Shown here piece by piece: positions 20,642 through 22,635 of a stretch of DNA of 27,548 bases. The stretch is from an uncultured archaeon (GTDB taxonomy: Archaea; Asgardarchaeota; Lokiarchaeia; Sigyniarchaeales; SOKP01), in the NCBI GenBank assembly GCA_964583985.1, contig CAZOYD010000047.1:1-27548 (forward strand), written 5' to 3'. The first letter of the stretch is position 1; every line of letters starts with the position of its first letter. A program made the translations under genes and the position numbers. The notes under the pieces are model-generated. The model was not told where the DNA came from and did not search any database. It was given only the letters and a program-made list of their open reading frames with translations.

Positions 20642-21970
20642 ATGCCATCTACCTTAGAAAAGATACGTATTTTGGGAGAGAATTCAAAGTATGATATATG
20701 TGCTAGCACGGCTTCAAGTCGTACTGAGAAATATCCAAAATTATTCGGAGATTCAAAGGATTGGGTAGGTGCGGCAGCTAGTGCAGGTATTTGCCACTCT
20801 TATACACCAGATGGTCGCTGCATGAGTCTCTTTAAAACACTCTATACTAACAAGTGCATATATAATTGTAAATATTGTTTCTCTCATGCTTGTAAGCATA
20901 AAATGAGTTTTACGGCAGAAGAATATGCTCGTACATTTATGAAACTTTATTCGATGAATGTAGTGGAAGGAGTTTTTATTTCATCAGGAATTTGCAGGAG
21001 TGCTGATGACACAACTGAAGAAATGTTAGAAGCCATACGTCTTCTTAGGTATAAATATCATTTTCAAGGTTATGTTCATTTTAAATGTTTACCTGGTGTA
21101 AGTCAATCTTTGTTACGAGAGGCAATTACGCTTTCAGATCGCATTTCAGTTAATTCCGAGGCTTCCAGTAAAGATTTTCTTTCTGAAATTGCGGAACAAA
21201 AGGATTTTTATAATGATATAATCTTACGTCAGCGTTGGTTAAAACAAATTCGAGTAAAACATAACATGGAAACTCTAAAAGTTATTAAAGATATGAAAGA
21301 AGACAATCAAAATAAATTCCAAGAAATGATGATCCAAGATCACCGTGAGGATGGTTATAAAAAATTTCGATGGGATGGAGCTCCAATATTAAATAGTGGA
21401 CAAACTACCCAATTTGTAGTGGGAGCTGCTGAAGGTGAAACTGACTATGATCTTCTCAAACAAGTTGATTGGGGCTATCGTAACATTGATTTGCGGCGGG
21501 GGTATTTTTCATCTTTTATTCCTATTGAAGGCACTCCGCTTGCTGGACAAAAAGCTGCTTCACTTTCTAGAGAACACCGATTGTATCAAAGTGATTGGTT
21601 ATTAAGAATTTATCACTACAAGTTAAAAGATTTAAAAGATATCTTAGCTGATGATGGAAATTTACCTAAAGGAGATCCAAAAATCTATCTCGCAAAACAT
21701 TATTTTGAAGGGCGTGGCCCATTGAATCCCAATACTGCGTCATATAATGATTTAATAAGAGTCCCTGGAATTGGTCCTATCTCTGCCAAAAGAATTATCA
21801 ACTTACAATCAAAAAAATTTGAATTTAAGCGACGAGAAGATTTAAAAGCAGTGGGAGTGGTATTAAAGCGTGCTGAACCCTACTTATTAATCAATGGTAG
21901 GAATCAAAGAACTCTTGAAGATTTTACTCAACCATTACAAGAAGAAAATTCATGGAGGGAAATTGCATGA
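20642..21970 (+). CDS. Putative DNA modification/repair radical SAM protein with helix-hairpin-helix (TIGR03916-like)
   Basis: KYDICAS, GICHSYTPDGRC, CxxxCxxC (CIYNCKYC), GQTTQFVVGA, REHRLYQSDWLLRIY and HhH LIRVPGIGPISAKRII. Confidence 0.9.
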   Translation: MPSTLEKIRILGENSKYDICASTASSRTEKYPKLFGDSKDWVGAAASAGICHSYTPDGRCMSLFKTLYTNKCIYNCKYCFSHACKHKMSFTAEEYARTFMKLYSMNVVEGVFISSGICRSADDTTEEMLEAIRLLRYKYHFQGYVHFKCLPGVSQSLLREAITLSDRISVNSEASSKDFLSEIAEQKDFYNDIILRQRWLKQIRVKHNMETLKVIKDMKEDNQNKFQEMMIQDHREDGYKKFRWDGAPILNSGQTTQFVVGAAEGETDYDLLKQVDWGYRNIDLRRGYFSSFIPIEGTPLAGQKAASLSREHRLYQSDWLLRIYHYKLKDLKDILADDGNLPKGDPKIYLAKHYFEGRGPLNPNTASYNDLIRVPGIGPISAKRIINLQSKKFEFKRREDLKAVGVVLKRAEPYLLINGRNQRTLEDFTQPLQEENSWREIA

Positions 21971-22635
21971 ATGGGGAGAGTGAAATTAAGAGAGATCCAT
22001 TGATGGTTTTAGGTCGTGCAAAAGGATATTCTAAAGAAGAGTTATTAAAAAACTTGCCTAGACACAAAAATTTTTCATCAGCTCTAGTCAAACAGATACA
22101 CTCTATTCCAGAAGTAATATTTCGAAATTCTGGCACACCCATTGCAAAAAAAATTAATAGAATGATGCGTGAAGTGTCAACTGAAGCATATCGTGCAAAA
22201 CAATTTACACGAACTGAAATCAATAGTCGGGGAGTCCTCTTTGGAGTCGTAATGCTCAAACATCGAGTAGTTGATCGTGTTTTAGATTATTTTCATAAAA
22301 GATGGCCTACTAGTATAATATGTTTGTATAATGAGTATAGTAAAATTACTAGTATAATCGATGAGAGAGGTAAAATACAAGAAATTGTTTCACCTCTAAA
22401 AGAAGTAGTCGAAAAAGTGAGCAAAATTCGTCCAATAATGCCATATTTTGAGGATATCCAATTTTCTGGAAATGAGATATATAAAACTCTGTACAACTCT
22501 CAATTCATACCTGAGCGAGAAAACCAAACTTATTTTAAACAGATGATACCTAAAAAATGTTTTAATCTACCAGGGATGAGAAACGGTATTGAAAAACGTT
22601 TTAGATATAAAAAACTTGATGATTTTACTCAATAA
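21967..22635 (+). CDS. DUF4130 / TIGR03915-like putative DNA metabolism protein
   Basis: V..EAYRAKQFTR, H.VV.....YF..RWP and Y...YNS.FIPER.N.....QMIPKK motifs, in the usual position after the radical SAM gene. The ATGA overlap at 21967-21970 and GGAGG at 21954-21958 favour this start over 21952. Confidence 0.8.
   Translation: MNGESEIKRDPLMVLGRAKGYSKEELLKNLPRHKNFSSALVKQIHSIPEVIFRNSGTPIAKKINRMMREVSTEAYRAKQFTRTEINSRGVLFGVVMLKHRVVDRVLDYFHKRWPTSIICLYNEYSKITSIIDERGKIQEIVSPLKEVVEKVSKIRPIMPYFEDIQFSGNEIYKTLYNSQFIPERENQTYFKQMIPKKCFNLPGMRNGIEKRFRYKKLDDFTQ

Follow-up and report, generated by a model that had tools for sequence, protein, structure and literature searches.

The window analysed here, that is, the whole stretch of 27,548 nucleotides (nt) on contig CAZOYD010000047.1 of an uncultured lokiarchaeon (GCA_964583985.1), contains two adjacent forward-strand genes, one for a radical S-adenosylmethionine (SAM) protein with a C-terminal helix-hairpin-helix (HhH) domain and the other for a protein of the DUF4130 family, and both products carry close to their C-termini a short peptide resembling the PCNA-interacting protein (PIP) box of archaeal sliding-clamp clients. 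The gene of the radical SAM/HhH protein, which is of TIGR03916 type, occupies 20642..21970 (+) and encodes 442 amino acids (aa), and the DUF4130 gene occupies 21967..22635 (+), its stop codon being 22633-22635. The two genes share the 4 nt of an ATGA overlap (ATG 21967-21969, TGA 21968-21970), which an earlier sequence-only reading of this DNA had already pointed out. Translation from the ATG of this overlap gives a DUF4130 protein of 222 aa, and from an in-frame ATG at 21952 one of 227 aa; the homologues are 219-222 aa long, which favours 21967. In addition, a ribosome-binding-like box GGAGG, read from the sequence at 21954..21958 (+), lies 8 nt upstream of this start and supports both the ATG at 21967 and translational coupling of the two genes.

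In the radical SAM protein, the PIP-box-type motif is Q422-R-T-L-E-D-F-T429 (21905..21928, +), in which Q422, L425 and F428 occupy positions 1, 4 and 7 of the PIP core; it is embedded in NQRTLEDFTQ (residues N421-Q430, 21902-21931), after which 12 more residues follow (PLQEENSWREIA). The PIP-like tail of the DUF4130 protein, Y-K-K-L-D-D-F-T-Q (22606..22632, +), stands immediately before the stop codon, so that the protein ends in RYKKLDDFTQ; it lacks Gln at position 1, but has the aliphatic Leu at position 4, the aromatic Phe at position 7 and two residues after this Phe. Both peptides are exactly those that the sequence-only reading had described. At position 8, the radical SAM protein of the window and its closest relatives have Thr (T429), and farther relatives have I, F, V or M; for DUF4130, the ending DFTQ or DFTR occurs only in this species and its closest relatives. 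In the structure models, the predicted local distance difference test score (pLDDT) of the radical SAM protein drops from 94 to 69 to 48 exactly at the motif, after the last strand, with a short helix at 425-429, and the DUF4130 protein stays below 50 over residues 193-222, its residues 164-222 being poorly modelled when taken alone. The low-confidence position of both tails would be consistent with flexible docking peptides. The two coding stretches also resemble each other at the nucleotide level, with 17/18 nt identical between 21914-21931 and 22615-22632. Gene conversion between the tails, although conceivable, is not needed to account for this, since the shared peptide (L-E/D-D-F-T-Q) and codon bias suffice: identical codons have P ~0.03 under the codon usage of the genome, and the flanks are unrelated.

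The host proteome offers a direct comparison. Among 3059 open reading frames (ORFs) of at least 100 aa, which make up the crude proteome of this genome, the pattern Q..[LIVM]..[FYW]h (h, hydrophobic) occurs within the last 12 residues of 20 and within the last 25 residues of 30, and PolD, FEN1 and PolB are included. The ends of these clamp clients are KQQKLSDFF for PolD DP2, KKQISLDSFFK for FEN1 and LQKDLVLFLEK for one PolB. Another host PolB has the Gln-less end IKKMDDFF, a type to which the DUF4130 tail KKLDDFTQ also belongs. There is one full-length PCNA in the host genome, on contig C2 (L001:1024-1836, -).

Both tails are conserved in archaea. The nearest homologues carry the names Promethearchaeota/Lokiarchaeota. 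In Lokiarchaeia, the pattern Q..[LIM]..[FY] on the radical SAM protein was found at 30/30 relatives by genomic locus, and the ending K-K-[IL]-x-[DE]-[FY]-h on DUF4130 at 29/29. The 120 nearest radical SAM proteins all have N/G-x-Q-x-T-[LIM]-x-x-[FY]-h, several of them ending 1-2 residues later, and the 120 nearest DUF4130 proteins have the end RFRNKK[IL]N[DE][FY][LFI]. A pattern scan of species genomes widened the view to 80 named loci, 67 archaeal and 13 bacterial, the former from DPANN, Methanothrix, Methanosarcinales, Thermoplasmata, Methanofastidiosia, Altiarchaeota, Halobacteria and other Asgard groups. At 64 of the 67 archaeal loci, the tail of the radical SAM protein follows the consensus [QD]-[TS]-[TR]-L-[ED]-x-[WF], as a rule with 1-2 residues left before the end, and none of the loci (0/67) has the bacterial clamp motif on this protein. 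On the DUF4130 side, T-L-[DE]-[DE]-[FY]-[FL] with 0-5 residues after it forms the end at 51 of 59 named archaeal loci, the broader pattern for archaea being [KN]x[KT][LI][DE][DE][FY][FL], and the motif keeps a near-constant distance of 21 residues after the conserved MPKKY. Loss of the tails among archaeal homologues had been named beforehand as what would speak against clamp docking; instead, they are kept at 30/30, 29/29, 64/67 and 51/59 loci. The module itself is patchily distributed in the phylum, being present in 42/150 genomes and 15/52 genera, and in 20/24 genomes of the window's own family.

In bacteria, the radical SAM protein carries a different clamp motif. Twelve named bacterial loci were counted, from Bacillota, Negativicutes, Calditrichales, Patescibacteria and others, and a motif of the QLxL[FW] type, i.e., the beta-clamp motif, was found on the radical SAM protein at 11 of these 12 (e.g., QQLSLWGD, EQLNMFKE, EQLTFWRE), and the Q-type PIP motif at none (0/12). 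No C-terminal tail is present on bacterial DUF4130 (0/11), where the proteins stop soon after the conserved PKKYWDWLPEG. An independent sample of 150 representatives of the radical SAM family at 50% identity shows where the motifs stand relative to the VPGIG anchor of the HhH domain: the PIP type lies at a fixed offset, mostly 43-50 residues after the anchor, whereupon the protein ends, and the beta type lies at +50 to +87. Because the offset of the beta type begins at +50, the shortest bacterial tails put the beta motif at the PIP position; that is to say, going by their placement in the sequence, the PIP-type and beta-type motifs are positional counterparts. Of the clusters in this sample that have a name, those with the PIP type (Woesearchaeota, Diapherotrites, Micrarchaeota and Methanosalsum) all come from archaea and those with the beta type (Armatimonadota and Anaerolineales/Chloroflexota) all from bacteria. 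The QLxLF-like ending of bacterial members, which the sequence-only reading had put forward, is thus borne out at 11 of the 12 loci and in many unnamed representatives, and the C-termini divide between archaea and bacteria, PIP type against QLxL[FW] type, in the way that it had expected.

The thirteenth bacterial locus, L050 (DATKTP010000212.1, 'Candidatus Deferrimicrobium sp.'), was left out of the bacterial count. It is binned as bacterial, and its PIP-type tails hardly differ from those at a Helarchaeota locus (L049); the contig is probably mis-binned or the product of a recent transfer.

As regards family membership, the radical SAM protein matches TIGR03916 with 331 bits (E 1.2e-98), residues 6-424 aligning with model positions 3-383 of 415, which is 12.5 bits below the curated cut-off of 343.5; this cut-off is passed in other genomes of the phylum (24/150). 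The shortfall of about 12 bits is probably explained by an insertion of about 40 aa (residues 207-247; 21260..21382, +), a helical extension with a pLDDT of 61-68 that is shared by few family members, since it is gapped in at least 51 of 57 rows of the family alignment at residues 207-241, down to 32 by residue 247, and since the phmmer matches to the protein split there into 1-204 and 249-428. The profile search matched both the Radical_SAM and HHH_3 domains in the 442-aa protein. The protein has the CxxxCxxC motif of the radical SAM [4Fe-4S] ligands (C72, C76 and C79; 20855..20878, +), which are Cys in 56/57 aligned members, the remaining row being gapped. The HhH domain (HHH_3, ComEA-like, DNA-binding; residues 361-404; 21722..21853, +) is matched at E 3e-10 and 40.5 bits against a cut-off of 27, and its best solved-structure match is the ComEA-related 2duy. 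The AlphaFold2 model of the whole protein has a mean pLDDT of 88.5, and a fold search with its radical SAM core gave generic radical SAM barrels (HydE, LipA, PFL-AE, BioB and viperin) among the matches listed; a sequence search against solved structures found none for any member of the TIGR03916 family. A universal auxiliary Fe-S cluster was considered and rejected, as the N-terminal C20, C51 and C60 are kept in only 38, 21 and 25 of the 57 members, respectively. The DUF4130 protein passes the cut-off of DUF4130 (PF13566) with 53.4 bits against 27, and reaches 48.2 bits with TIGR03915, under its cut-off of 112.25 and over model positions 86-235 only, so that the N-terminal third of this bacterial model has no counterpart in the window protein. 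By these profile scores, the window genes belong, or nearly belong, to the known TIGR03916/DUF4130 module.

The two proteins are likely to work as one functional unit, which is indicated by the ATGA overlap, by the DUF4130 gene lying directly downstream of the radical SAM gene in 102 fetched loci, by natural fusions and by a published model. Among metagenomic representatives, three single-chain proteins of 666-729 aa (P0286, P0318 and P0325) have the order radical SAM-HhH-DUF4130, and in two of the three the linker between the domains retains a beta-clamp motif (QLSFF/QLSLF). For a bacterial radical SAM/DUF4130 pair, an AlphaFold 3 heterodimer is available in the literature (bioRxiv 10.64898/2026.08.19.745780). 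The neighbours of the pair in the window are unrelated (a thiamine diphosphate enzyme, a glutamine synthetase and two transporters of the major facilitator superfamily), and the pair is a stand-alone operon.

The sequence-only reading had remarked that no uracil-DNA glycosylase (UDG) gene is adjacent to the pair. This holds: no UDG-family domain is fused or adjacent to DUF4130 in the window, and the observation extends to the genome as a whole, in which the UDG superfamily (PF03167) has no match, the genome being 100% complete by markers and matches being present in 13/14 control genomes. Because this genome has no UDG-family gene, the glycosylase found in many bacterial modules is not required. 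As for the context in bacteria, it has been reported that the COG1573-COG4277 operon is LexA-regulated in several phyla (PMC8565304) and that in Acinetobacter the genes for the radical SAM and TIGR03915 proteins belong to the DNA-damage response that depends on DdaA (PMC12392091). This regulation by LexA or DdaA points to damage repair or tolerance rather than routine modification.

The sequence-only reading had also proposed modelling of the peptides with the host PCNA. For the DUF4130 tail, host PCNA (28-row alignment) was combined with DUF4130 residues 176-222 (37-row alignment), and the three runs scored 0.45, 0.18 and 0.64 (median 0.45), against 0.00-0.01 for the controls (n = 3); at least 49% of contacts are shared between the runs, and the partner pLDDT is at least 39. 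In calibration, 58 of 80 solved complexes and 2 of 110 mismatched pairs attained the mark for this score, but at scores of 0.60 and below only 7 of the 80 solved complexes passed, as did both passing mismatches, and these counts hold only roughly here since own alignments were used. The model lends weak support to docking of this tail, with the best control at 0.01, and the pass may be owed to the model's memory of known complexes.

Taken together, the best explanation as a whole, which is somewhat better than an even bet, is that the two proteins form a heterodimer docked on PCNA through its tails. The genes form a translationally coupled operon, and their products would function together. 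In this unit, the radical SAM protein would bind a [4Fe-4S] cluster through C72, C76 and C79 and contact DNA through its C-terminal HhH domain, and the DUF4130 subunit, with a non-catalytic DHH/DHHA1-like fold, would probably hold the nucleic-acid substrate. Each subunit would insert a short linear peptide into the hydrophobic pocket of archaeal PCNA, namely the canonical PIP box QRTLEDFT of the enzyme and the Gln-less, basic PIP-like tail KKLDDFTQ of DUF4130. In this way, one or both tails could keep the heterodimer on DNA-loaded PCNA, where it might occupy two of the three protomers, and its action on DNA would take place at the site of replication or repair synthesis or behind it. In bacteria, the QLxL[FW] motif would tether the enzyme to the beta clamp through the radical SAM subunit only, the operon being placed in the SOS/DNA-damage regulon. 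The most likely job would be an oxygen-independent, SAM-dependent radical repair, or possibly modification, of a DNA lesion. The sequence-only reading had likewise seen a radical-based DNA complex adapted to the archaeal clamp by two docking tails, and each part of this that could be checked here was borne out. What the sequences show is the family membership, the motifs with their conservation, the exchange of motif type between archaea and bacteria and the fusion forms; PCNA binding, bivalent docking and the chemistry are what we infer.

A bolder form of this proposal would make the heterodimer a truly bivalent PCNA client, with the two tails on two protomers of one ring, radical chemistry that is oxygen-independent and coupled to replication or repair, and clamp tethering as a principle of the whole family; this is put forward tentatively, as somewhat doubtful. 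If true, it would be the first radical SAM enzyme in the 'tool belt' of the sliding clamp, a single principle would hold throughout the family, with the beta clamp in bacteria and PCNA in archaea, and the enzyme of Asgard archaea without UDG would act without a glycosylase partner.

A number of observations weigh against docking of the heterodimer on PCNA by its tails. First of all, the motifs deviate from the canonical form: position 8 is Thr in both window motifs, a place taken by an aromatic or aliphatic residue in canonical PIP boxes; position 1 of the DUF4130 tail is never Gln (Y here, and N, S or G in other archaea); and many Euryarchaeota begin the radical SAM motif with Asp or His, not Gln. 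In addition, only about 2 residues separate the radical SAM motif from the folded domain and, in this lineage, 12 more residues follow it, so that access to the PCNA pocket is not guaranteed, and the whole C-terminus of DUF4130 is kept among close Asgard relatives, behaviour like that of a short linear motif appearing only across phyla. Moreover, the loose core [LIVM]xx[FYW] is frequent at C-termini in this AT-rich genome (24% of the crude ORFs within the last 12 residues and 49% within the last 25), and because the loose core alone is so common, it is conservation, not the regular expression, that carries the argument. The complex model of the DUF4130 tail is the sole model support for docking, and it is weak; solved PCNA-PIP complexes exist, so that its pass may reflect memory or likeness rather than binding. 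Finally, the fold-search matches listed are only generic radical SAM barrels, which give no pointer to the chemistry.

The strongest alternative, still unlikely, is that only the PIP box of the radical SAM protein docks on PCNA and that the DUF4130 tail contacts the partner or DNA, or recruits another factor. The missing Gln at position 1 in every archaeon examined would fit such a division, as would the restriction of the bacterial clamp motif to the radical SAM protein and the weakness of the model of PCNA with the DUF4130 tail; DUF4130 residues 164-222, poorly modelled alone, could be a segment that folds on a partner, and the fixed spacing of about 21 residues from MPKKY to the motif is less like a short linear motif. 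However, the DUF4130 tail, basic and then [LI]-[DE]-[DE]-[FY]-h at the C-terminus, matches the Gln-less end KKMDDFF of the host PolB. Pairing does not depend on the tail, because the tail is present in archaeal DUF4130 and absent in bacterial ones, which still pair with the enzyme, and the controls of the tail model stayed at 0.00-0.01 against the median of 0.45.

It is also conceivable, though improbable, that neither tail binds the clamp and that both are structural or inter-subunit elements which merely look like PIP boxes. The closeness of the radical SAM motif to the last strand of the folded domain (about 2 residues) and the Thr at position 8 of both window motifs speak for this explanation, and clamp binding itself is deduced from motif likeness. 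Against this, a structural element would not be swapped, at the same position, for the clamp consensus of the other domain of life (QLxL[FW]), nor would it sit behind linkers as variable as those of bacteria (+50 to +87); QLSLF also appears in the inter-domain linker of bacterial fusion proteins, and the archaeal motif matches the bona fide PCNA clients of the host. Chance resemblance is effectively refuted by conservation. For it, one could cite the AT-rich genome, whose proteins abound in I, L, F, Y, K and N, and the loose core, which 24% of the crude ORFs have within their last 12 residues. Against it, the full Q-type motif is found in that stretch in only 20/3059 ORFs, both motifs recur throughout the archaeal phyla, and which type of motif is present depends on the domain of life.

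Tail docking on PCNA can be set beside several known systems. The closest is the bacterial COG1573-COG4277 operon, in which a TIGR03914 UDG-family domain, a TIGR03915 DUF4130 protein and a TIGR03916 radical SAM protein occur under LexA or DdaA control (PMC8565304, PMC12392091). It has in common with the window the two protein families, the gene order, the tight coupling, CxxxCxxC, the C-terminal HhH domain and a clamp peptide after the HhH domain. However, the clamp peptide of the window is a PIP box for PCNA, whereas that of bacteria is QLxL[FW] for the beta clamp; archaeal DUF4130 bears a PIP-like tail as well, absent in bacteria, and has a shorter N-terminus, about 40 residues matching a stretch of 85 positions in the TIGR03915 model; a UDG-family gene is neither fused nor adjacent nor present genome-wide; the radical SAM protein has the extra insertion of about 40 aa; and archaea are not known to have an SOS system. 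The second comparison is with the archaeal PIP clients (FEN1, PolB, PolD DP2, the RFC large subunit, RNase HII, NucS/EndoMS and family-4 UDG), which have the same short C-terminal Qxx[LIM]xx[FYW]h or its Gln-less basic variant; the window differs from them in that both subunits of a heterodimer carry the motif and in the Thr at position 8.

The spore photoproduct lyase (SPL) SplB is likewise a radical SAM enzyme on DNA and is SOS-regulated in several bacteria, and Aravind and colleagues termed the present family 'SplB-like' (PMC3765255). A specific kinship with SPL was not upheld, as no solved SPL was matched at E up to 1 and none was among the fold-search matches listed. In addition, SPL is not known to have an HhH domain, a DUF4130 partner or a clamp motif. 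For the DHH/DHHA1-like fold of DUF4130, the systems for comparison are the DHH/DHHA1 proteins RecJ, Cdc45/GAN and NrnA.

In the literature searched, which covered few subscription journals, neither a radical SAM enzyme nor a DUF4130 protein was found described as a PCNA client, and a link between radical SAM enzymes and clamp-binding motifs was not found there either, so that novelty is not proven thereby. The new element appears to be the link between a known module and known PIP-type peptides. The TIGR03916/TIGR03915 module is widespread, DNA-damage-induced in bacteria and biochemically uncharacterised, and a clamp peptide that is QLxLF, for the beta clamp, in bacteria and PIP, for PCNA, in archaea would place its enzyme on clamp-loaded DNA. 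On this sequence evidence, the family probably works tethered to the clamp, and radical SAM chemistry would thereby join the clamp-tethered activities. The Asgard version, with two tails and no UDG, shows that the system does not depend on the glycosylase.

Some minor observations were also made. Inside the DUF4130 gene, an antisense ORF of 111 codons (window 21924-22259, -) is without support and most likely spurious. A scan for bacterial-type promoters and terminators gave background level, which is uninformative for an archaeon. Elsewhere in the genome, outside the window, PIP-type ends occur on two proteins that were not expected to be clamp clients, a deoxynucleoside-kinase-like protein (contig C2:44412-45041) ending in STQLTLNKFLSET and a leucine-rich-repeat protein (contig C3:78405-79949) ending in NQKKITDYL. 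Two host DUF72 (PF01904) proteins, also outside the window, have canonical PIP-type ends, namely KQKKLTEYF (contig C9:75294-76094) and NQTSLKNFLT (contig C19:591-1310), and these ends suggest that the DUF72 TIM-barrel family may be a PCNA client in this host. An open frame of 88 codons (contig C2:8767-9003, -), at a distance of about 3.4 kb from the gene for PCNA, is 89% identical to PCNA residues 192-270 and, judging from this identity, is a duplicated C-terminal PCNA fragment.

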